In this document: positions 8,765-62,625 of the stretch, piece by piece | Position numbering within the stretch: position 1 is the first letter of the stretch | Layout: the number at the start of each line of letters is the position of its first letter | Assembly (NCBI GenBank): GCA_951406725.2 | Contig: OX597835.1 | Location: 12,152,001-12,216,000, forward strand | Source: Octopus vulgaris | Taxonomy: Eukaryota | Length of the DNA: 64,000 nucleotides | Reading direction: 5' to 3' | Program-made: the position numbers and the translations under genes | Notes under the pieces: model-generated | What the model was told of the DNA's origin: nothing | Seen by the model: the letters and a program-made list of their open reading frames with translations, nothing else | Database searches by the model: none

Positions 8765-8796
<32 letters not shown>

Positions 8797-8974
8797 TTAG
8801 AGAAAAAAACACCATTAAGCAATTCAAACAATGATAGACGTAAACCAAATCATAAATTTAAAAAATGATATATATTTTTATAAAACATATAACTAGATCA
8901 CAAAAAGTATAAAAATGAATAATCGATATATAATATATATATTATATGTTGATATATAGTATATATATATATAT

Positions 8975-9190
8975 ACTATATCGCCATGTTGATTCGCTAG
9001 CTTCTGCACGCATTTTTTTTCTCTCCTTGTTTCTTTCCGTGTTTCTTTTCTGTGTATCTTTCTGTTGAAGAGCGTAGGCTCGAAACGTAAAAGACTTGTT
9101 TTATTTATATTCCTGAGCGCCATACTAATACAATTGTTTGTTTGTATTCCACCTGCCTTCGTCTTTTGTTTATTTTCATAAAGCTTCCCG

Positions 9191-9192
<2 letters not shown>
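8975..9192 (+). mobile_element. hammerhead-bearing module between (TA)n tracts (Penelope-like pLTR/retrozyme-type)
   Basis: Pyrimidine-rich leader, hammerhead motif at 9057-9094, and a U-rich tail running into (TA)n. Confidence 0.7.
9057..9094 (+). ncRNA. minimal type-I hammerhead ribozyme, A6U core variant
   Basis: TCTTT-CTGTTGA-A-GAGC(GTAG)GCTC-GAAA-CG-TA-AAAGA. Stems I and II pair perfectly and stem III is the ACGT palindrome. Confidence 0.7.
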
Positions 9193-9467: not shown

Positions 9468-9851
9468 AAACGTACAGATATGTACATATACGACGGTAGG
9501 GCCTAACGGAGGACCTACTGAAGCAATCACCTGAAGACGTGTGATAATGATTACACGACATCTCACCAATGTATTAAAGGTGTAAAAACGTGTCGGAACA
9601 ATTGTACTGATTTCAAATAAAGAATATTGTTCATCCATTTTCATCGGTTATCTATTTAGATAAACTCTACGGATACTATGGAATTCCTGGTATACAGCCA
9701 GTGGCAAGAGCATTTCCACTGTATAACGACATCAGGTAGCCAATAGCAGTGGACGAGCCTTGCGTAGCATAGTACAAGCTTTTTACCTAAATCTTATTTA
9801 ACTACACACACACACACACACATACACACATATGTATGTATATATGTATAT

Positions 9852-10239: not shown

Positions 10240-10288
10240 ATAAACAAACATTGCATTGTGTGTTTGTGTGTGTGGGAAAGAGAGAGAT

Positions 10289-10335
<47 letters not shown>

Positions 10336-10834
10336 GAGATCAGTTGTTTTCATATTCCAGAATATTCCAGATTCTGAGCAGCCATTCAGTCAATGATTTG
10401 AAAACACATGTTTGAAAACACACGATACAAACGACAATTCAATTCCAAACAGTGACGCACTCATCGCCCACTTGAAAGTTCTGTGTGATTGTAAACACTG
10501 AACACGAGCAAGTTGCCAGCAATATATTCCTGCATTTCTCTACACTTTCAAATAGCAAAACTGTTATTAAATCTTGTTATTTTCTTTCTGAAATAATTTT
10601 ACGTAAGAAAGAAATCAACACTGTGTAAATATTTCCATATATTTCAATACATGGATATCGCTTTTAATATGAGTTACATAAGCAATGCGTCAACCAAAAA
10701 TCAATATCTATTTGACAATATTTTTAATAAATAAATATTTCTAATAAATATGATTGAATAACAGAATTTTAAAATACAATGTTACGTAGCTTTTCTAAAT
10801 TTAGGACTACACACTTTATTAAGCTAGCATGGTG

Positions 10835-10923
<89 letters not shown>

Positions 10924-10994
10924 TAATTATATATATATATATATATGTAAGTGATCTACTTCTAGCATATGGCTGTCCACATTTAGCCCTTTAA

Positions 10995-11047
<53 letters not shown>

Positions 11048-11274
11048 AGGCGGCGAGCTGGCAGAAACGTTAGCACGCCGGGCGAAATGCGTAGCCGTAT
11101 TTCGTCTGTCGTTACGTTCCGAGTTCAAATTCCGCCGAGGTCGACTTTGCCTTTCATCCTTTCGGGGTCGATAAATTAAGTACCAGTTACGCACTGGGGT
11201 CGATATAATCGACTTAATCCGTTTGTCTGTCCTTGTTTGTCCCGTCTGTGTTTAGCCCCTTGTGGGTAGTAAAG

Positions 11275-11329
<55 letters not shown>

Positions 11330-11477
11330 TGCATACATACATATAAATATATACATACACCTACATACACATATAGAGTTGTCTGTGCGTGTTTCTGTGT
11401 GTCTGTTTTCTCGTATATATGTTTCAACCGAAACAAACATTGCATTGTGTGTTTGTGTGTGTGGGAAAGAGAGAGAT

Positions 11478-11524
<47 letters not shown>

Positions 11525-11603
11525 GAGATCAGTTGTTTTCATATTCCAGAATATTCCAGATTCTGAGCAGCCATTCAGTCAATGATTTGAAAACACATGT
11601 TTG
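10240..11603. repeat. local near-identical duplication of ~174 bp (10240-10413 and 11431-11603)
   Basis: AAACAAACATTGCATTG...(GACA)n...GATTTGAAAACACATGTTTG is present twice. Confidence 0.92.
11049..11278 (+). mobile_element. family-A SINE (Meta/Sauria-like central domain)
   Basis: Head GGCGGCGAGCTGGCAGAAACGTTAGC, B box GAGTTCAAATTCC, and core GCCTTTCATCCTTTCGGGGTCGATAAATTAAGTACC. Confidence 0.92.
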
Positions 11604-12284
11604 GCTATAACTCTCTAAAAATGCTTTATAGTTATTTCCCTTACAAACCTGAGCAACGCCGGGCGATACTGCTAGTATTTACATATAGTATATAATGTAA
11701 TATCATATAAACACAGACACACACACATATACATGAAGGTGTTGCAGTCTGTTTGAGGCATACAGGTTTATGTAATAAGCATTGATTTAGAAAGACACAG
11801 CTGTGCATTGTGGGAAGTTATGTATGAATATAAACAAAAATTAAGCATTCTATTAAAACAATAATATTTCTAATAATATTTCTTGAAATATTCTATAAAA
11901 TATAAAGACTTCATTTATTTTAAAATATATAATAATAAATTAATATTTCTGTGGAAAATTTTTTCTAGGAGAGAAGAAAATTGTAAAAAAAAAAACAAAG
12001 TAACATCTTGGAACGTTTCAAGTTTGGGATGAGGCGTAAAACCGCGAATCATTAAAATATGGGAAAAAATCGAATCACAGATCGTATCTTAAGGGTTAGT
12101 TTTGGTTTTGTGTTAATTTTGAGTTCTTTTGCTGTGAATTTCTTGTTTAGCAGATGAGATGAATTTAGCAGGTGCATGAGACGAGAGGGAAACAAAAACA
12201 TTGTGTTGTGGAACCCCCGGTGAGAGTGGGTAGGTGAGCCAAAAGACTTCGCACAGTTTTTTTTTTTCGTTGCTGAGGCTTATA

Positions 12285-12332
<48 letters not shown>

Positions 12333-12348
12333 AGTACGTATGTGTAAG

Positions 12349-12389
<41 letters not shown>

Positions 12390-13037
12390 TGCATACATAC
12401 ATATAAATATATACATACACCTACATACACATATAGATATATATGTTTTATATTTACATATAGTATATAATGTAATATCATATAAACACAGACACACACA
12501 CATATACATGAAGGTGTTGCAGTCTGTTTGAGGCATACAGGTTTATGTAATAAGCATTGATTTAGAAAGACACAGGTGTGTATTGTGGGAAGTTATGTAT
12601 GAATATAAACAAAAATTAAGCATTCTATTAAAACAATAATATTTTAATAATATTTTTGAAATATTCTATAAAATATAAAGACTTCATTTATTTTAAAATA
12701 TATAATAATAAATTAATATTTCTGTGGAAAATTTTTTCTAGGAGAGAAGAAAATTGTAAAAAAAAAAACAAAGTAACATCTTGGAACGTTTCAAGTTTGG
12801 GATGAGGCGTAAAACCGCGAATCATTAAAATAAAAAAATCGAATCACAGATCGTATCTTAAGGGTTAGTTTTGGTTTTGTGTTAATTTTGAGTTCTTTTG
12901 CTGTGAATTTCTTGTTTAGCAGATGAGATGAATTTAGCATGTGCATGAGACGAGAGGAAACAAAAACATTGTGTTGGAACCCCCGGTGAGAGCGGAAAAA
13001 GACTTCACACGGTTTTTGTTCGTTGTTGAGGCTTATA

Positions 13038-13073: not shown

Positions 13074-13169
13074 CAAATCTTTAGGTTAGTTAAAATATAT
13101 TTTGTATACACATATATATATATACCTACACACACACACGTGTTTGGCGGGTGTAAATGTACAGATATG

Positions 13170-13298
13170 TGTATCAGCTGAAATTGCGAGGATGATCCGG
13201 TTCTTGACTGAAGATTGAATCCTTCGAATGTCCCGTCCGTGTTTTTTGTATCGTCTTCTAAATGTTTTGCGTTCTTGTCCCAGTTTGAATTTCTTTAC

Positions 13299-13300
<2 letters not shown>
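13170..13300 (+). mobile_element. 3' fragment of a TA-associated element family (related to 29455-29590 and 33600-33850)
   Basis: ATCAGCTGAAATTGCG...CTTGACTGAAGA..TTCGAATGTCCCGTCCGTG...CGTCTTCTAAATG...CAGTTT running into (TA)n. Confidence 0.75.
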
Positions 13301-13363
<63 letters not shown>

Positions 13364-13388
13364 TTTTGTGCATTTTGATGTTGACATA

Positions 13389-13491
13389 AGTTCCTTGCTT
13401 TTCCTGATGAGAAAGCGGCATAATGTACTCCTTATTCCTTCGCAATTAGGAATATGCAGCCTTCGAAACATATGTCGAAAATAAAGGAATT
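13389..13491 (+). ncRNA. intact type-I hammerhead ribozyme
   Basis: TTTTC-CTGATGA(13404-13410)-stem II GAAAGCGGCATA/TATGCAGCCTTC-GAAA(13465-13468)-CATATG-TC(cut after 13476)-GAAAA. Stem I extends through TTCCTT/AAGGAA. The module lies between two (TA)n tracts. Confidence 0.9.
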
Positions 13492-13516
13492 TTGTTAATT
13501 TGTCGTTCAACTCCAT

Positions 13517-13607
<91 letters not shown>

Positions 13608-15589: not shown

Positions 15590-16800
<1,211 letters not shown>

Positions 16801-29239: not shown

Positions 29240-29766
29240 TTCTTTCACTTGTTTCAGTCATTTGACTGTGGCCATGCTGGAGCACCACCTTTAGTCGAAT
29301 AAATCGACTCCAGGACATATTCTTTGTAAGCTTGATACTTATTCTAACGGTTTCTGTAGCCGAACTGCTAATTTACGGGGACGTAAACACACCAACATCG
29401 GTGTTCAAGCGATAGTGGGGGACAAACACTGAAACACAAACATATATATGTAAAAGTAAAAAAATATACAAACTGAGACAAGAACGTGAAACATTTAGAA
29501 GACGACACAAAAAACACGGACGGGACTTTCGAAGCCCTCAGTCATCAGTCAAGAACCAGATCATCGCAATTTCGGCTGATTAATCTTGATATATATATAT
29601 ATTCGATGGGCTTATTTCAGTTTCTGTGTAACAAATCCACTAACAAGGCTTTGGTTGGCCCGAGGCTATAAGTAGACGATACTTGCCGAAGGTGCCACGC
29701 AGTGGGACCGAACCCAGAACCATGTGGTTGGGAAGCATGCTTCTTACCACACAGCCACGCCTGCCC
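29240..29766 (-). mobile_element. family-B SINE with a nested insertion in its internal (TA)n
   Basis: Both SINE halves are present and 29455-29590 is foreign sequence homologous to 13170-13300. Confidence 0.88.
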
Positions 29767-31000: not shown

Positions 31001-31003
<3 letters not shown>

Positions 31004-31321
31004 GAAAATACCACCTTTTATCAATTCAAAATGAACAATTAAATTACACCATCTAGAAAATTACATATAATAGAAATATTAAAAATAAAATAGCAATAAC
31101 ATACCAATGATTAAGTAAATTGCAAAATAATAATAAAACCGTATGTATTTGGTAGAATTTATTTTTATTTTTATTTTTATTTTTTATTATTATTTTGCAA
31201 TTTACTTAATCATTGGTATATTATTATTATTTTATTTTTAATATTTCTATTATATGTAATTTTCTAGATGGTGTAATTTAATTGTTCATTTTGAATTGAT
31301 AAAAGGTGTTTTTTTTTCTAA
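31001..31321. repeat. ~138-bp inverted repeat embedded in (TA)n
   Basis: 31001-31138 is the near-perfect reverse complement of 31182-31321. Confidence 0.93.
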
Positions 31322-31412
31322 TTTTAATATATGTATATTAAATTTTGCGAAATCTGATTTAGTATTTCTAAATTGAATTTTTCCCTGTAAGTTAGGAATA
31401 ATATTCCCTCAA

Positions 31413-33165: not shown

Positions 33166-33849
33166 TACATGCATTAAACTAATGCAACATTTGTTAAAAC
33201 TTCCCCCCTTGCGTTGTCTTCTGTGTTCATTGTCTTCATAATATACGCATACATATATTACGTGTGTGAATCTATATGTATACTTGTATATGTCTGTATA
33301 TATGAGTGTATGTAGATGTAGTTACGTGTTTGTTTATATATATATATATATATATACCTCTCTCTCTCCTTCCACGTGACCAGTATTCCGCCTCTTTCTT
33401 GGTTCGACTACCATCCGTGTACCATCTCTTATATTCCTTTCCATGCTTCTCATCTCTTATGTTCCTGCTGTAAGGCTTTACTTCCACACACGCCTGCTTA
33501 ATTTAATTCGTCCTCACTCGAAAGACACCTGTTGTTAATGTCCTGTTGCTTCTATTTGTAATTGTGTACTATTTCTCGTTTTTTTTTCTTCCTTGTTTTT
33601 GTATACATTCACTTGCTTTCTTCCAAAGAATCTAGTGCTCTTAGTTTAGATTTTCTTCGGGCCGGCCAGATTGGTCAGTCTTGAGTGTAACCGGCAGAAA
33701 CTGCAACGACTATCTGGAACTCGACTGACGATAGAAAGCTCCGAATGACTCTTCCTTGTTTTTTTTTTCCTGTCCTTTTTTGTATAGTCTAACTGTCCGG
33801 ATGTCTTGTTGTAGCCTGTTTCGTTCTTGTTCCATTTTTTGTTCTTTTT

Positions 33850-34556
33850 TCGGATTGGGGGGCAATCAGAAAGTCCTTCATCGACTGGTCTTTCACTCTC
33901 AGTTCCACTAACATTGAGACCGCATGGCAGAACTTGGAGAACATTGTCACCTATACATGCTCAAAACACGCTTCTATGAAATCCACTAGCACAAACACAA
34001 ACCAGCTCCCTAAAAAGAAAAGTACACTCATGAGGCGCATCAAAAGACTCAATAGAATGTTCAACCATTTAAAATACTCCCACATACAACATCCACATTC
34101 AACAACAATGAAAAGGTTGGAGCTGGAAAAGCTTCATCTGCAGACCGACATGAAAACCTCCATTGAAAATCAAAGAGCTGCAGAGGAACAATGGGTAATC
34201 AAAAACATTAAACAGAACCCAAAAGTGTTCTATTCTTATGCAAATAAGCATAGAACCGCTGTCTCACCCATTGGGCCATTGATCGATGATAACAGCATTC
34301 CCCAACACGATGCTAAAGAAATGGCAGAAGTACTGCAGAGACAATATTGCTCTGTCTTTAGTGATCCCACTGATATTGAAGTAAGAGAAGCGAACGAAGT
34401 TGATTCCCAACTCGGACCTCATAGCAGCAATAAATGAGGTCAAATACTATTCTGCTGTGGGCCCTGAAAGATTCCCCGCTAGTTTCCTACAAGAATGTAG
34501 ACACCAACTTGCAGTCCCTCTGACCAATCCCTGGAGGAATTCTTTAGACTCAGGTT
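33850..34556 (+). pseudogene. CR1-group LINE ORF2 remnant
   Basis: IKQNPKVFYSYA...IGPLID...AEVLQRQYCSVFS...SAVGPERFPASFLQEC..LAVPL. Confidence 0.88.
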
Positions 34557-35726: not shown

Positions 35727-36639
35727 TGCGAAAATTCCAGTTTTTCATCCTTCTTCTCTCTTTCTTCAAGTTTTATTTTAAATTTTTAGTTAAAATTCTC
35801 GCCACTCCGTCTTCATGCTCCATCTTCTGTTCCCCCACCTACGTCCCCTCCGCCTCCGCTTCTTTATTATCCTTCTCATCTATTATTCAGATTCAATTTT
35901 TCTCCATTGCCACCGTTTGCCATTCCTTTACTTTCCTCATATCTCCAGATAGTTATAGCCCAACTGCGTCTGAACACCATTTTTATAGTTACCATCTATC
36001 TTATTCCCAACCAAGTTCAGCTTCACACGTGACTTTTCTAGCATTATCACCGCTACCACCGTCGGCATTCGTGAATCAACACCGTCTCCAACACTAAAAG
36101 AAACCAAAGACATCTCTAATAATATCCAATAATATTCAATAAAAAAAAATTGCGTGTTCCTTGTTCTTTCTTCGCCTAAAGAATAAAAATAACGACTAAA
36201 AACAACATGCCATGTATCGATCTAGCAACAATAAAATAGGAGAAACGTAATAAATATATCAACAGGTCACATTCGACGGGAATAATGGGGAAAACCGATC
36301 AGATGGCGCCAGCTTGGGTTCCCTTCTGACTTGTTACAATGTATTTGGGTAAAAGGTTTTTGCAACATTAAATTGAGGAATTATTACAATAACGTTTCGA
36401 AGTTTTTGCATCGACGTTATCATAATCATAATCATCGTCATCGTAATCCTCGTCATCATTATCGTCGTCGTCGTCGTCGTCGTTGTCGTCGTCGTCATCA
36501 TCAACAAAAACAACAACAAATGCATTTATTTTCCAGTTCTGTCATAAAAATTAGGCTACATAATAATAACAAAAAGACGGGGAGAAGGGGGAAGAGAGAA
36601 AAGGAGGGGGGTGAGGAGAAGGGGAGTGCGGAGGGAAGG

Positions 36640-36677
36640 AGGAGAAGAAGAAGAAGAAGAAGAAGAAGAAGAAGAAG

Positions 36678-36708
<31 letters not shown>

Positions 36709-36745
36709 GGAACAAGAAAATGAAGAAGAAGTGGAACAAGAAAAT

Positions 36746-36780
<35 letters not shown>

Positions 36781-36800
36781 AGAAGGAGAAGAAGAAGAAG

Positions 36801-36831
<31 letters not shown>

Positions 36832-36836
36832 GGAAC

Positions 36837-36867
<31 letters not shown>

Positions 36868-36904
36868 GGAACAAGAAAATGAAGAAGAAGTGGAACAAGA
36901 AAAT

Positions 36905-36939
<35 letters not shown>

Positions 36940-36968
36940 AGAAAAAGAAGAAGAAGAAGAAGAAGAAG

Positions 36969-36999
<31 letters not shown>

Positions 37000-37154
37000 G
37001 GAGCAAGAAGAAGAAGAAGAAGAAGAAGTGGAACAAGAAAATGAAGAAGAAGTGGAACAAGAAAATGAAGAAGAAGAGGAAGGAAGAAGAAGAAGAAGAA
37101 GAAGAAGAAGAAGAAGAAAAGAAGAAGAAGAAGAAGAAGAAGAAGAAGAAGAAG

Positions 37155-37185
<31 letters not shown>

Positions 37186-37243
37186 GGAGCAAGAAGAAGA
37201 AGAAGAAGAAGAAGAAGAAGAACAACAACAACAACAACAACAA
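36640..37243. repeat. (GAA)n array with higher-order GTGGAACAAGAAAAT units
   Basis: Direct reading. Confidence 0.97.
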
Positions 37244-40511: not shown

Positions 40512-40811
40512 TATATCACCTAGATACATACATACATAAATACATGTATACATGTATACGTTCATTTACACATTCATATAGAATGATGGATTTATATATA
40601 TATAAACATATATATACAAAGGTATATATGTATATACATATGTATGTGTGTGTGGGTGGGTGTGTGGGTGTGTACATATATGTGCATACATCACCTAGAT
40701 ATATACATACATAAATACATGTATACGTTCATATACATATTCATATAGAATGATGGATTTATATATATATATAAACATATATATACAAAAGTATATATGT
40801 ATATACATATG
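40512..40811. repeat. tandem duplication, period ~175 bp
   Basis: ATCACCTAGATA...TTCATATAGAATGATGGATTTATA is present twice. Confidence 0.88.
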
Positions 40812-41579: not shown

Positions 41580-41706
41580 CGAAAGAGAAGAAAGAAGAGG
41601 AAAAAGAAGAAGAAGAAGAAGAAGAAGAAGAAGAAAAAGAAGAAGAAAAAGAAGAAGAAGAAGAAGACAAGAAGAAGAAGAGGAAAAAGAAGAGGAAAAA
41701 GAAGAA

Positions 41707-41738
<32 letters not shown>

Positions 41739-42041
41739 AGAAAAAGAAGAAGAAAAAGAAGAAGAAGAAGAAGACAAGAAGAAGAAGAGGAAAAAGAAGA
41801 GGAAAAAGAAGAAGAAGAAGAAGAAGAAGAAGAAGAAGAAAAAGAAGAGGAAGAAGAAGAAAAAGAAGAAGAAAAAGAAGAAGAAGAAGAAGACAAGAAG
41901 AAGAAGAGGAAAAAGAAGAGGAAAAAGAAGAAGAAGAAGAAGAAGAAGAAGAAGAAGAAGAAGCAGAAGAAGAAGAAGCAGAAGAAGCAGAAGAAGAAGA
42001 AGCAGAAGAAGCAGAAGAAGAAGAAGCAGAAGAAGAAGAAG

Positions 42042-42072
<31 letters not shown>

Positions 42073-42197
42073 GGAACAAGAAGAAGAAGAAGAAGAAGAA
42101 GTGGAACAAGAAAATGAAGAAGAAGTGGAACAAGAAAATGAAGAAGAAGAGGAAGAAGCAGAAGAAGAAGAAGAAGAAGAAGATGAAGAAGAAGAAG

Positions 42198-42228
<31 letters not shown>

Positions 42229-42260
42229 GGAAGAAGAAGAAGAAGAAGAAGAAGACGACG
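41580..42260. repeat. complex (GAA)n array
   Basis: Direct reading. Confidence 0.97.
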
Positions 42261-42918: not shown

Positions 42919-43874
42919 CATATATATATATATATAATTTTATATATATGTGTATATGTATATAATATATATACATATACTTATATAGATAGATATGCAT
43001 ATATATATATATAATCTCTTGCAAAACAAATACGTGTGTGTGTGTATGTGTGTTTATGTATATATATATGTATGTGTGCATATGTAGACATATATATATG
43101 TACGTGTATATCTATGCATGCATATATGTGTGTGTGCGCGCGTGTGTGTGTATATTGGTATATATATATATATATGCATATACATACGTGCATATATGCG
43201 TGTGTATATTCAAATATACATACATATGTACATGTGTAGACATATGTAGATATAGATATAAGTAGACATATAATACACACACACACACACACACACACAT
43301 ATCTATATACACAATACATACACAGCAATGTTGCAGCCGTATGCTTGATGGAAAAGCCACATTCGCCATGTAACAACGATGATTGATTGACCTGTTAGAA
43401 ATAGCAGCGAAATATTCTACTAATTATATCTGATCGTCTCCAAGAAAGTAATTTAGTGGGTGGATGGGTGGTGGTGGTACCTGCGGTAATGGGGGAATTA
43501 ATGTTCTTATTGACTATTAGATTAGTTTATATTAACTGTCGGTCGGAACCAATGGAAGAAGTGTAACGGGTTTTATATTTGTTTTTGTATTTTGTTAGTA
43601 AAGGAAGTCGAGATTTAAACTGAAAAATCTATATATGTAGACATATATATATATATATGTAGAAATATAAATACACAAAAAGACACACATACACACATAT
43701 CTATATACACAATACATATCTACATAATATATACATACACTGCCTGCACCGCCGTATGCTTGACTGTAAGACACCGATAAAATTCCGCCAATCCAAACCG
43801 TAAATATTGAGGCTAAAGAATTAAATGAAATAATACATTTTATATATATATATGTATATAAATATATACATATA

Positions 43875-46039: not shown

Positions 46040-46940
46040 CCCAAACTTTAAATATTCTCTCTTCAACTGATTTTGTCAAATTCTCAACAATCTTACTTTT
46101 GATATTTCTTGCAGCAGTTTTTATTGCTTCCCATGGTTATTCCTTGTTTGGATATTGTTTACCATTAGAATATCTCTAAAGACTCCGCCGGTTACGACGA
46201 CGAGGGTCCCAGCTGATACGATCAACGGAACAGCTTGCTCGTGAAATTAACGTGCAAATGGCTGAGCATTCCACAGACACGTGTACCCTTAACGTAGTTC
46301 TCGGGGATAATCAGCGTGACACAGAGAGTGACAAGGCTGACCCTTTGAAATACAAGTACAACTCATTTTTGCCAGCTGAGTGGACTGGAGCAACGTGAAA
46401 TAAAGTGTCTTGCTCAAGGACACAACGCGTCGCCGGGAATCGAACTCACAACCTTACGATCATGAGCCGAATGCTCTAACCACTAAGCCACGCGCCCTCA
46501 CCCATTAGAATATACATCTTTTCAAATAACTGACCACAAATTCTCTATTGGGTTTAGATCTGGCGATTGGCGGGGGTGGGTTCATTCCATTGTCATATAT
46601 TCTTTGAAACTTTTATTAGCTAAATGGTTAATAGTACGTTTAGCAGAGTGTGAAGCGGCGTTATCACGCATAAATACGTTCTTTAACTTGAAACTTCGCG
46701 ATGTTGACTTGTACCAAATGGAAGAATTTGTCATCTAAAAACTTGCAATAATTTCCAGCGTTTATTTTGATTCCATCAGCAACCTTAAATTGGCCTGTAA
46801 TGTCTCCTCCAACTATACCAGCCCAAAACATGATTCCTACACTACCATGTGTTGGTTGACGCCTTCCATGTAACACCCAGCCTCTTTCCCATCCATTAGG
46901 TCCATCTAATGTTGCACTGCACTCGTCAGTAAAAATAAGT
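46040..46940 (-). pseudogene. Tc1-family (DD34E-type) transposase remnant
   Basis: FTDECSATLDGPNGW...IMFWAGIVG...DNAASHSAK...SPDLNPIENLW...WEAIKTAA. Frameshifted and interrupted by a SINE. Confidence 0.9.
46174..46501 (-). mobile_element. family-D SINE (tRNA + CORE-like head, family-C tail), 12-bp TSD
   Basis: Head GGGCGCGTGGCTTAGTGGTTAGAGC..GTTCGATTCCC..GTGTCCTTGAGCAAGACACTT, with a tail homologous to family C. TSD CCATTAGAATAT at 46162-46173 and 46502-46513. Confidence 0.93.
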
Positions 46941-46999: not shown

Positions 47000-47086
47000 T
47001 ATAACAATAATTAAGGGTTTAGCAACGAGTTGCTAAACCACTTCGGTATGTGGTTTAGCAACTCGTTGCTAAACCCTTAATTATTG

Positions 47087-47091
<5 letters not shown>
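47000..47091. repeat. perfect 42-bp inverted repeat with nested palindromes
   Basis: Arms 47000-47041 and 47050-47091 with an 8-nt loop. Confidence 0.95.
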
Positions 47092-47118
<27 letters not shown>

Positions 47119-47122
<4 letters not shown>

Positions 47123-47405
47123 CTACATTTCGGGACGGTCGTCTTTTTTCTTGTCAAATAAACACACGCACTGTATATTCGTTCTTCACTTATTTATTAT
47201 TCGTCTTATTTTATCTTACGTCCATTGTCAGGAGGAGACACGTACGATGGAAGAGTGGCAGAAGAGGTCACAGGCGCGTGATGAAATATTTCCAGACAAT
47301 GAACATAAGATAAAATAAAACAAATAATAAATGAGTGAAGACTGAATATATAGTGCGTGTGTTTATTTGGCAAGAAGAAAATGACCGTCCCGATATGTAG
47401 CAATA
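47119..47405. mobile_element. MITE/foldback element, ~100-110 bp arms, TA flanks
   Basis: TATTGCTACATTTCGGGACGGTC... versus ...GACCGTCCCGATATGTAGCAATA. Confidence 0.85.
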
Positions 47406-47503: not shown

Positions 47504-47977
47504 GTAAATTTCGGTACTTAGTTGTGCCATTTATTTACTAATTTGTGTATTTTTCCCTCACGGGCTACTTTTTACTGGAAGGCAATACTTTGTATTGCAT
47601 TACTGATATTTTGAAACTTCTTCACCGTTTCTCGTAGTTAGCGTTCCGTATTTCAGTCGAGTGTGTTAGTATTAATGTGGTAACATCGTAGATTTCGTCT
47701 TGGTATATGTTTGGCTGAAGAAGGTAAAGCAAAATATTGGTGAGAGACATATCTTGCAAAACCTGAAACCTGCAGGCACCACATTATCCATTTTCCGGGT
47801 GTTTCATCTTTCAGATGTTCTCCCTGGAGGTAAGACGGTTTTTTTTCTCTATTTTGTTGCACACACGCATTTTTGCTAATACATACGCGGTGAAGCTACA
47901 CATTAGCGTCGTATTTTTACGTTCGCTATTTCCAGTAAATTTCGGTACTTAGTTGTGCCATTTATTTACTAATTTGT
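47504..47977 (+). mobile_element. retrozyme/pLTR-like unit (431 bp) with 43-bp terminal direct repeats, inside (TA)n
   Basis: GTAAATTTCGGTACTTAGTTGTGCCATTTATTTACTAATTTGT at 47504-47546 and 47935-47977, with an internal hammerhead. Confidence 0.85.
47712..47781 (+). ncRNA. type-I hammerhead ribozyme, U16.1C lesion
   Basis: TGG-CTGAAGA-AGGT..GCAAAATAT/ATATCTTGC..ACCT-GAAA-CCTGCAGG-CA-CCA. Confidence 0.8.
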
Positions 47978-53512: not shown

Positions 53513-53750
53513 CTAAACTACAATTAAACTGTAACTTTTTAAAACCAATGATCAACTTCGCATTGTTAATTATTGCTCCATTTCTTTTCTTTTCTATATA
53601 TATTAAACTATGGTTTTACCTTTAAATTACCAACTACTGTATACAAGGACTATACATAGTGAGGTAATACACCAGTAGTATCTACATTTATCCCTTGGAT
53701 GGTTGAATAACCTCTAACACATTGTGCTATGTGTGTGTATGTGCGTGTGT

Positions 53751-54131
53751 CTTGGTGGTAAAATGCGAATTAGCCACCCATATGATTTATAATTTTCACT
53801 TTTACCATTTATGAAATCAGCGTTCGATTTCAACGGAAATCTTATAAGCTGACAAGGCGAGGTGAGCTTAACTCTAGGCGCGGTGAGAGCCACTGATGAG
53901 CGTTAAGATGCGTTAAGCATCAGAATGCAAAATCATCGATGATCTGGCCCTATCTGCGACCGTAGGGAGATTGTCTCCCTTGTCAGCTCATTAAGATAGT
54001 GCTTTTTGTGGCTATTGAGTTATTTTGACTCTTATTTCTAGCAATACTGTGCTCATTAGGGCCCTTTTTCACTTTAGTGACGTATATATTTCTGCCTTGA
54101 GGTTGTAAAATTGCGAATTATCAACCCATAT
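53751..54131 (+). mobile_element. retrozyme/pLTR-like unit (~347 bp) with imperfect terminal direct repeats
   Basis: CTTGGTGGTAAAATGCGAATTAGCCACCCATAT (53751-53783) versus CTTGAGGTTGTAAAATTGCGAATTATCAACCCATAT (54096-54131). Contains an internal hammerhead and ends in (TA)n. Confidence 0.8.
53889..53948 (+). ncRNA. type-I hammerhead ribozyme, G12A lesion
   Basis: GCCA-CTGATGA-GCGTT.GATGC/GCATC.AATGC-AAAA-TCATCGATGA-TC-TGGC. Confidence 0.8.
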
Positions 54132-54167
54132 TATATATATATAATTAGCCACCCATATTGTGTATGC

Positions 54168-54206
<39 letters not shown>

Positions 54207-54217
54207 ATTAGCCACCC

Positions 54218-54309
<92 letters not shown>

Positions 54310-54318
54310 ATTAGCCAC

Positions 54319-54361
<43 letters not shown>

Positions 54362-60519: not shown

Positions 60520-61780
60520 TTGGTTTGGCAAGAAAGTTATTTCGCTTTTTGCAAATCGATAGTTACGATTTTTATAATGACTTTTGTCAATGTTGTGATT
60601 TTTTCCCTCTTGACATTTGATAGCCGTTACTTTTAGCTTACTTTAGAAGCAAATTGCGTAATTTTGTTTACAGCTGTTAGTTCAGTGTCTATTTTAACAT
60701 GGAATGCAAAAACGAACATGTTCACAATATTCTACATTTTTATTTCCGCAAAGACAGAGAAAGCGGCTGAGGTTCAGAAAAGAGAAATGTGAAGTTTATG
60801 GTATTGATTACTTAATAGAACGCATAAGTCAGAAATGGCTTTTAAAATTCCTCTCTGGAGATTTTTCACTCAAGGATGAACAATGTTCTGGTTCATCGAC
60901 AAAAGTTGATGACCGAATCAAAGCCATAATTGAAACTGCTTGTCATATAACTGTACGAGAGATTGCAGAAAGGTTAAATTTATCACACACAATTGAAAAT
61001 TACTTAAAATGCCTTGGATTCGTTAAGAAGTTCGATATTTACGCTCCGCATAAATTGAAGGCGATTCACTTTACACAACACATCAACATTTGCGATATGC
61101 ATCTCTTACGCAATGAAATCGACCTTTTTTTAATCGAATCATCACTGGTGATGAAAAAGGGATTGTCTACAATAACAGCAATCGAAAACGATCATACAAG
61201 TATAATGAACCAGCAGAAACTACATCGAAAGCTGAATTGCATTTAAAAAAGGTCATGCTGTCAATTTGGTGACATCATAAAGCTGTTGTGCATTTTGAGC
61301 TGCTTCTAAGGAACCAAACAATCAGTTCAGATGTTTACTGTCAACAACTAATGAAACTGGAGGAAGCTATCAAAGAAAAAACAGCCAGAATTGGCAAATC
61401 GTAAAGGAATCGTGTTCCGCCATGACAACGCTAGACCACACACGTCTTTGTAAACTCGTGAAACATTACTGGACCTTGATCTTGAACATTACTAGCCCTG
61501 ATCTTGCACCATCAGATTACCAGTTATTTTGAAGTTTACAAAATTCCTTGAATGCTGAAACTTTCAACAATGATTATGACCTGAAATTACTCTTGCTTCA
61601 GTTTTTGGCTGATAAGGACCAGAAGTTCTATGAGTGCGGAATCATGAAGTTGCCAGAAAAATGGCAAGAGATCATCGGACGAAATGGAAAATATATAATT
61701 GATTAAAGTTCATTCTTTGTATGAAAATAATTACTTTTATTTCGCACTAAAAAACAGAAATTACTTTCTTGCCAACCCAA
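60520..61780 (+). mobile_element. full-length decayed mariner (DD34D), 1261 bp, TA TSD
   Basis: TIRs TTGGTTTGGCAAGAAAGTTATTTC / GAAATTACTTTCTTGCCAACCCAA. Motifs TGDEK, HDNARPH and SPDLAPSDYQLF are present, with frameshifts and stops. Confidence 0.95.
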
Positions 61781-62465: not shown

Positions 62466-62537
<72 letters not shown>

Positions 62538-62625
62538 GAAATATTAAAATTACTAAGTCTCTCTTGGAGCTAATCAGCGACAGCTTTAGTCTTATATTTA
62601 TAAGACTGCCATATAAGTATGGCGA

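Follow-up and report, generated by a model that had tools for sequence, protein, structure and literature searches.

Introduction

Penelope-like elements (PLEs) are described as carrying hammerhead ribozymes near their 3' ends, often together with a 30–40-bp tail, and those of the Neptune, Hydra and Naiad clades as favouring microsatellites, mostly (TA)n (PMC8557442). A palindromic helix III is reported to be typical of PLE hammerheads (PMC4209133). PLEs are abundant in Octopus vulgaris, for which a share of 6.83% of the genome is given (PMC13282606). Non-LTR retrozymes, described as tandem units of 150–450 bp (PMC7229834), have been proposed to derive from pLTRs (bioRxiv 10.64898/2026.07.22.740005).

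The purified PLE protein of Anolis was reported to cut both DNA strands with a preference for 5'-ATT-3', and was proposed to nick its own pLTR (PMC11167929). Its reverse transcription begins internally, at two sites that lie on either side of the tail and are non-homologous to the target; hammerhead cleavage was unneeded in vitro, where mutating the hammerhead did not block insertion (PMC11167929). PLEs are further reported to tend toward insertion into or next to earlier copies (PMC6765202), and rotifer PLEs to show 8–10-bp target duplications, microhomology joins and secondary insertions (PMC3846280). Slippage of L1 ORF2p duplicates non-A interruptions in Alu tails, a behaviour compared to that of telomerase; I factor and R2 are cited alongside (PMC3415434).

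Here we analysed a 64,000-nucleotide stretch of the O. vulgaris genome (contig OX597835.1; the window), which is eukaryotic and rich in microsatellites and repeats, and we describe a PLE-type end in it that is followed by three short copies of its own terminus.

Results

Anatomy of the unit

The stub- and tail-bearing locus was confirmed as real. An insert of ~380 bases (53751–54131) lies in a TA microsatellite, and its two terminal tails are spaced 347–348 nt apart, in agreement with the preliminary description of a ~347-bp unit with terminal repeats and a hammerhead enclosed by an inverted repeat, which we located at 53847 and 53978. The anatomy, observed directly, is as follows.

53728–53750, + strand: left flank, a degenerate TG/TA dinucleotide tract (target site); from sequence.
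53751–53783, + strand: left tail, version alpha, 33 nt, with a terminal hairpin at 53754–53778 that has a GCGA loop; from tail comparison and folding.
53790–53809, − strand: partial copy, inverted, of the 5' half of the tail; it ends at the AATT from which the stubs start; from sequence and duplex energies.
53847–53988, + strand: long hairpin closed by an 11-bp inverted repeat (53847–53857 and 53978–53988), with the hammerhead inside; z −5.77.
53889–53948, + strand: type I hammerhead fold with one core mismatch; own descriptor, no Rfam match.
54095–54131, + strand: right tail, version beta, 37 nt; from tail comparison.
54132–54142, + strand: 11-nt spacer of pure TA; from sequence.
54143–54158, + strand: stub 1, the 3' 16 nt of tail alpha, likely a remnant of an original right tail; exact match.
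54159–54205, + strand: degenerate block TGTGTATGCG, then pure TA, then GT; from sequence.
54206–54221, + strand: stub 2; exact match.
54222–54308, + strand: 85-nt pure TA tract plus GT; from sequence.
54309–54324, + strand: stub 3, with 54272–54324 an exact copy of 54169–54221; exact match and repeat comparison.

The insert amounts to ~1.1 units, i.e., one unit plus one tail, with no tandem array, and no second copy of the unit was found in the 64-kb window. There is no open reading frame (ORF) of at least 100 amino acids inside the unit; ORFs that overlap its end or the stubs are microsatellite read-throughs, and there is no convincing long ORF near the locus. Compared with shuffled sequences, the whole unit (53751–54131) folds with a z-score of −3.68, and its circular fold gave −4.2 and −3.5, indicating a strongly structured RNA. 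A 27-nt tail pattern had 0 matches in bacterial and archaeal genomes, and blastn against plasmids and phages returned no match.

Among the four possible right ends, only the one behind stub 1 has a flank similar to the left flank (score 9, against 0–1 for the other three); in two tests this likeness was not significant, being equalled by 49 of 313 control tract starts in one and by 27 of 312 in the other, and it gives a hint of a possible target duplication flanking 53751–54158.

Hammerhead and hairpin

The 11-bp inverted repeat closes a 143-nt hairpin of −63.1 kcal/mol, and 0 of 200 shuffles were as stable. Within it, our own type I descriptor identified a hammerhead in sense orientation, 187 nt from the unit's 3' end. 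Four matches to the descriptor were found in the window; that at 53893 ties for the top score of 11, the best in three shuffled windows being 8. All helices pair: a 4-bp stem I, the core at 53893–53899, an extended stem II (53900–53928) and a stem III formed by a 12-nt palindrome (53932–53943), with predicted cleavage after C53944. Positions 12–14 read AAA (53929–53931), so that the core carries one mismatch, G12 being present as A at 53929. Rfam returned no hammerhead at the gathering threshold or at E up to 10, and nothing but microsatellite-driven miRNA noise at this locus. The hammerhead noted earlier stands as a type I fold by our descriptor, but with an altered core and no Rfam match. 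G12 has a catalytic role in hammerhead ribozymes, and because this position is A, the present copy is likely inactive, judging from its sequence.

Relation to PLE ends and retrozymes

The unit has the marks of a PLE-derived pLTR, namely a sense type I hammerhead near the 3' end with a palindromic stem III, tails of 33 and 37 nt within the 30–40-bp range, and a (TA)n-type site. The PLE-type identity proposed in the preliminary description is thus upheld by the orientation and distance of the hammerhead, the 30–40-nt tail and the (TA)n target. The unit is a non-coding, hammerhead-bearing PLE-type end in (TA)n, an anatomy already known, and it would work like a solo, non-autonomous PLE end. It has no reverse transcriptase (RT) plus GIY-YIG ORF of the kind that marks an autonomous element.

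The endonuclease-positive PLE ends of Neptune, Hydra and Naiad (PMC8557442) are closest: they share the sense hammerhead near the 3' end, the 30–40-bp tail and the (TA)n preference, and they too show partial-tandem and inverted junctions. In contrast to them, our unit is without the RT/GIY-YIG ORF and has tails at both ends, in two versions; a ladder of 16-nt stubs is not described in the accessible parts of that source. Metazoan non-LTR retrozymes (PMC7229834; bioRxiv 10.64898/2026.07.22.740005) resemble the unit in their non-coding monomer of 150–450 bp, a range that includes its 347–348 bp, in the type I hammerhead, in the structured RNA and in their proposed PLE origin. However, a non-LTR retrozyme that is active by the definition of the bioRxiv report has two or more units in tandem, every one of them with a complete hammerhead, and an intact catalytic core; the present unit exists as ~1.1 copies rather than in tandem, and its core is not intact.

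Short-motif searches of the consensus files in the PMC8557442 supplement, where line breaks and cut lines could hide matches, found no match of the unit to PLE ends besides a 9-mer, and no autonomous partner of the unit was identified. This 9-mer forms the 3' end of the coral Hydra-2_Amil consensus, is also present in the stub sequence at 53769–53777 and occurs nowhere else in that file; it may be a chance match or may hint at a Hydra-clade partner. Unit motifs had no match in the PMC13282606 supplement, among whose files there is no octopus repeat library.

Hammerhead-bearing units are ordinary in this window, as seven other segments, six of them TA-adjacent, show hammerhead-like cores. A second hammerhead-type unit (47504–47976, +) lies between TA tracts and has terminal tails that are identical at 43 of 43 positions and form a hairpin (z −3.7), a long stem II and no stubs. 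Two different hammerhead-type ends, 13140–13304 (+) and 13360–13521 (+), are stacked in one TA tract; the former is 84% identical over 134 nt to 29450–29580 (−), with a weaker third copy at 33688–33764. More hammerhead-like cores were located at 8976–9191 (+), 9468–9790 (−), 16085–16403 (+) and 63361 (−), most of which adjoin TA tracts and none of which reaches the Rfam gathering score.

Three stubs of the far tail

The 16-nt terminus AATTAGCCACCCATAT occurs exactly at 53768, within the left tail, and at 54143, 54206 and 54309, precisely where the stubs had been placed by the preliminary description; a version with two mismatches is at 54116, in the right tail. Elsewhere in the 64-kb window it was not found at up to three mismatches. 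Shuffles gave a mean of 0.9 matches at that threshold, and 1 of 100 reached five. The derivation of the stubs from the element's end was borne out, as was the finding that they match the left (far) tail at 16 of 16 positions and the right (adjacent) one at 14 of 16. All of them begin at AATT.

The spacers of 11, 47, 87 and 41 nt contain 0, 6, 1 and 1 G/C bases, respectively. Spacers 1 and 3 are the TA tracts reported earlier, but the spacer between stubs 1 and 2 starts with TGTGTATGCG, with 6 G/C bases in 47 nt. The right flank of stub 1 differs from those of stubs 2 and 3. At its 5' junction stub 1 shows only ~1 nt of microhomology, which argues against a simple slippage product. A tandem duplication of stub 1 does not fit stub 2, since the degenerate block is present only once, and an additional switch or a deletion is therefore required.

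A GT precedes both stub 2 and stub 3, and the two lie inside an exact 53-nt duplication, in which 54169–54221 is repeated at a distance of 103 nt. We observed directly that this block, including the G of the flank, is common to both, and accordingly count them as one event. A G after five TA units was found at 32 of 1426 positions elsewhere, so that two independent junctions would both carry it with a probability of (32/1426) squared, or ~5e-4. Stub 3 is without the extra T that comes after stub 2.

Three simple schemes were rejected. Independent insertion of three 16-nt stubs at random TA tracts failed because none of the 113 pure TA runs in the window carries another stub, and a single unequal crossover from stub 1 to stub 2 because the degenerate block is unrepeated. 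Slippage between two AATT sites at the body start would need two extra substitutions in every spacer.

Two versions of the tail

The two tail versions, likewise observed directly, differ by three substitutions and two indels over 53751–53783. Two of the three substitutions form a compensatory change in a predicted stem, from G53757–C53775 in alpha to T54104–A54123 in beta, and the third breaks a wobble pair in beta. Three random substitutions would change both sides of a stem pair with P = 0.020–0.025, and a decay-only history, in which the left tail and stub 1 stay unchanged and the right tail is hit twice, has P of at most 0.037. The body start (53790–53809) pairs better with alpha, the duplex energies being −13.1 kcal/mol with the left tail and −8.2 kcal/mol with the right one. 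Alpha and beta are likely different templates; the evidence from these sequence comparisons is moderate, because the tail hairpins are weak alone (z −1.91 and −1.17), and the covariation comes from a single pair.

Repeated interruptions elsewhere in the window

Sixteen other TA arrays have two or more phase-breaking islands, and nine of them repeat an interruption. Across 22 other TA arrays, a phase-breaking 9-mer was shared by 11 of 121 island pairs within an array versus 35 of 2024 between arrays, and 11-mers by 5 of 78 versus 11 of 1407; these control arrays were chosen by eye and the island pairs are not independent. DNA slippage or template switching repeats interruptions in microsatellites. 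The present interruption differs from ordinary ones in consisting of a retroelement end whose 5' junction is non-homologous, but it resembles them, and our in-window controls, in being copied with its flanking repeat.

Microsatellite-bounded duplications of ~170 and ~770 bp also lie nearby. Local duplications of this kind, ~170, 770 and 1190 bp apart, occur in the regions 10242–12900, 40515–40810, 36635–37222 and 41586–42255, where, in addition, two (GAA)n arrays share an interruption that recurs many times in them.

Near the seven other hammerhead-type ends in the window, which belong to other families and were placed by eye, no terminal 16-mer stubs were found (0 of 7). One 16-mer matched only its own left tail, and two had distant low-complexity matches.

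Several other features were seen in the window. Short TA-flanked pieces of 17–35 nt at 43017–43033, 8794–8828 and 62535–62564 match the regions of 47437, 31290 and 37843, and are possibly very short truncated insertions. Long inverted-repeat segments that are 76–93% self-complementary abut TA tracts at 31001–31324, 47004–47087 and 47121–47402. A weak tRNA match of 29.5 bits (46426–46495, −) stands at the end of a dispersed repeat and is probably a SINE head. Broken reading frames at 60698–61690 (+) and 33793–34437 (+) presumably resemble a mariner transposase and a LINE fragment.

Discussion

A proposed insertion of a sister copy into the element's own tail

The account that we tentatively prefer, at somewhat less than even confidence and for this one locus, is that the insertion of a sister copy into the right tail, at its AATT, left stub 1 behind, and that stubs 2 and 3 are products of DNA-level copying within the TA tract, or else of misassembly. 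We infer that a nick was made, that a sister copy existed and in what order the events took place. In trans, a PLE reverse transcriptase would first have inserted an alpha copy with identical tails, like the neighbouring unit at 47504–47976. A GIY-YIG endonuclease would then have nicked the right tail of this alpha element at AATT, and the new 3' OH would have primed on a beta RNA running into (UA)n, so that TA and the beta tail were copied. The cDNA could have rejoined by homology within the body, or could have yielded a 16-nt target duplication. The product would read alpha tail, body, beta tail, TA and alpha stub. A template switch between TA tracts might then have copied the stub downstream as stub 2, and stub 3 might have been made from stub 2 by a duplication of 103 nt, whether genuine or introduced in assembly.

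Several observations favour this account. The compensatory stem pair and the low probability of a decay-only history point to a second template, and the body start pairs better with alpha. The stubs all start at AATT, and the Anolis PLE protein cuts 5'-ATT-3'. PLEs are reported to insert into or beside earlier copies (PMC6765202). Moreover, only the flank of stub 1 resembles the left flank, a likeness that is not significant against the controls. For stubs 2 and 3, the 53-nt identity, the shared G, the repeated islands and the nearby duplications favour an origin at the DNA level.

Other observations count against it. It concerns one locus, and no other copy of the alpha or beta family is present in the window. 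The ATT preference is that of an enzyme from a different PLE clade in vitro. The covariation is a single pair, with the neighbouring wobble broken in beta and weak tail hairpins. Stub 2 needs an extra switch or deletion, and the target-duplication-like match is equalled by many control tract starts. Poseidon PAc of Anolis (PMC11167929) offers a likeness in its tail, which is placed between two reverse-transcription starts in an AC-rich stem-loop, and in its ATT-cutting enzyme; however, that element is autonomous and of another clade, and repeated stubs are not described in the accessible parts of that report.

Alternative histories

The same pattern could have arisen entirely at the DNA level: the right tail would once have been alpha, template switching in the TA tract would have duplicated its last 16 nt, and the tail would then have decayed or undergone hairpin-templated repair. 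Repeated interruptions and local duplications are indeed common here, the change of G12 to A suggests some decay, and no second template is necessary. We nevertheless consider this history unlikely, given that the 5' junction of the stub has ~1 nt of microhomology and that both diagnostic changes fall on one copy (P ≤0.037), one of them compensatory (P ~0.02).

The preliminary description had explained the stubs by repeated abortive priming. In such a model, a PLE reverse transcriptase would, in one insertion, prime on (TA)n, copy 16 nt, slip, re-prime several times in the manner of telomerase and then copy the full unit. PLE reverse transcriptases are relatives of telomerase (PMC8557442), slippage at initiation has been reported in L1/Alu, with citations for I factor and R2 (PMC3415434), and the Anolis protein is predicted to be a dimer (PMC11167929). 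All stubs begin at one point and are found on the primed side, and simple tandem duplication of stub 1 does not account for stub 2. The slippage at 3' ends described for L1 ORF2p on Alu A-tails, and cited there for I factor and R2, is alike in its telomerase-like re-engagement of the RNA 3' end and in the duplication of tail interruptions (PMC3415434). There, however, the RNA that gives rise to the repeats is the one subsequently copied in full, whereas here the stubs mismatch the adjacent end. This weighs against reiteration, because the end of the template that is re-copied in reiterative priming is the one extended afterwards; an alpha-to-beta-to-alpha template switch, or a later replacement of the right tail, would be required. 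In addition, the spacers of 11, 47 and 87 nt are not uniform, the right flank of stub 1 is degenerate, unlike those of stubs 2 and 3, the latter two form one block, and none of the seven other hammerhead-type ends (of other families, placed by eye) has stubs nearby. The Anolis enzyme, moreover, initiates internally, at sites non-homologous to the target (PMC11167929). Repeated abortive priming was thus not sustained, and we judge reiteration in a single insertion improbable. Within the 64-kb window the stubs occur only here and are explicable by DNA-level copying or assembly error, the outcome that the preliminary description had named as refuting its proposal. Telomerase-like repeat synthesis is probably not needed for the stubs.

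Alternatively, the 3' end may have been inherited from a donor that already had the beta tail, TA and a stub, with read-through RNA and RT slippage in (UA)n duplicating the stub together with its G. L1 ORF2p does duplicate non-A interruptions in Alu tails (PMC3415434), and the shared G would be explained without a DNA-level event. Yet the origin of the first stub is only pushed back to the donor, and the likeness between the degenerate block that follows stub 1 and the left flank is a hint, not significant, of local target DNA; we regard such inheritance as likewise improbable. Least probable of all is an artefact of assembly or consensus in which stub 3, perhaps also stub 2, is one stub written twice from differing TA lengths in haplotypes or reads, for while an exact 53-nt copy separated by 85 nt of pure TA would suit it, stub 1 and the alpha/beta difference are left unexplained and stub 3 is without the extra T present after stub 2.

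Implications for PLE biology

We found no description of PLE stub ladders in the open-licence literature, although existing repeat libraries may already contain this family. RT slippage at 3' ends, by contrast, already has precedent in L1/Alu, I factor and R2 as covered in PMC3415434, and the mechanism suggested in the preliminary description is thus not unprecedented. As a single locus, the stub array is an oddity that known processes can produce.

A bolder reading, which we think quite unlikely, is that an endonuclease-bearing Penelope RT builds telomere-like ladders in chromosomes, either by re-copying 16 nt plus (TA)n in one event or by repeated homing at its own AATT. If it were true, stub ladders would be a genome-wide record of the cut site in vivo and a source of new interrupted microsatellites.

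Of assays on a full-length PLE enzyme we found one, from 2024. The compensatory pair suggests that the tail hairpin acts as a signal in cis. Should AATT-start stubs and alpha/beta chimeras recur genome-wide, they would map the cut site of the endonuclease and show, from sequence, homing of the element into its own tail.
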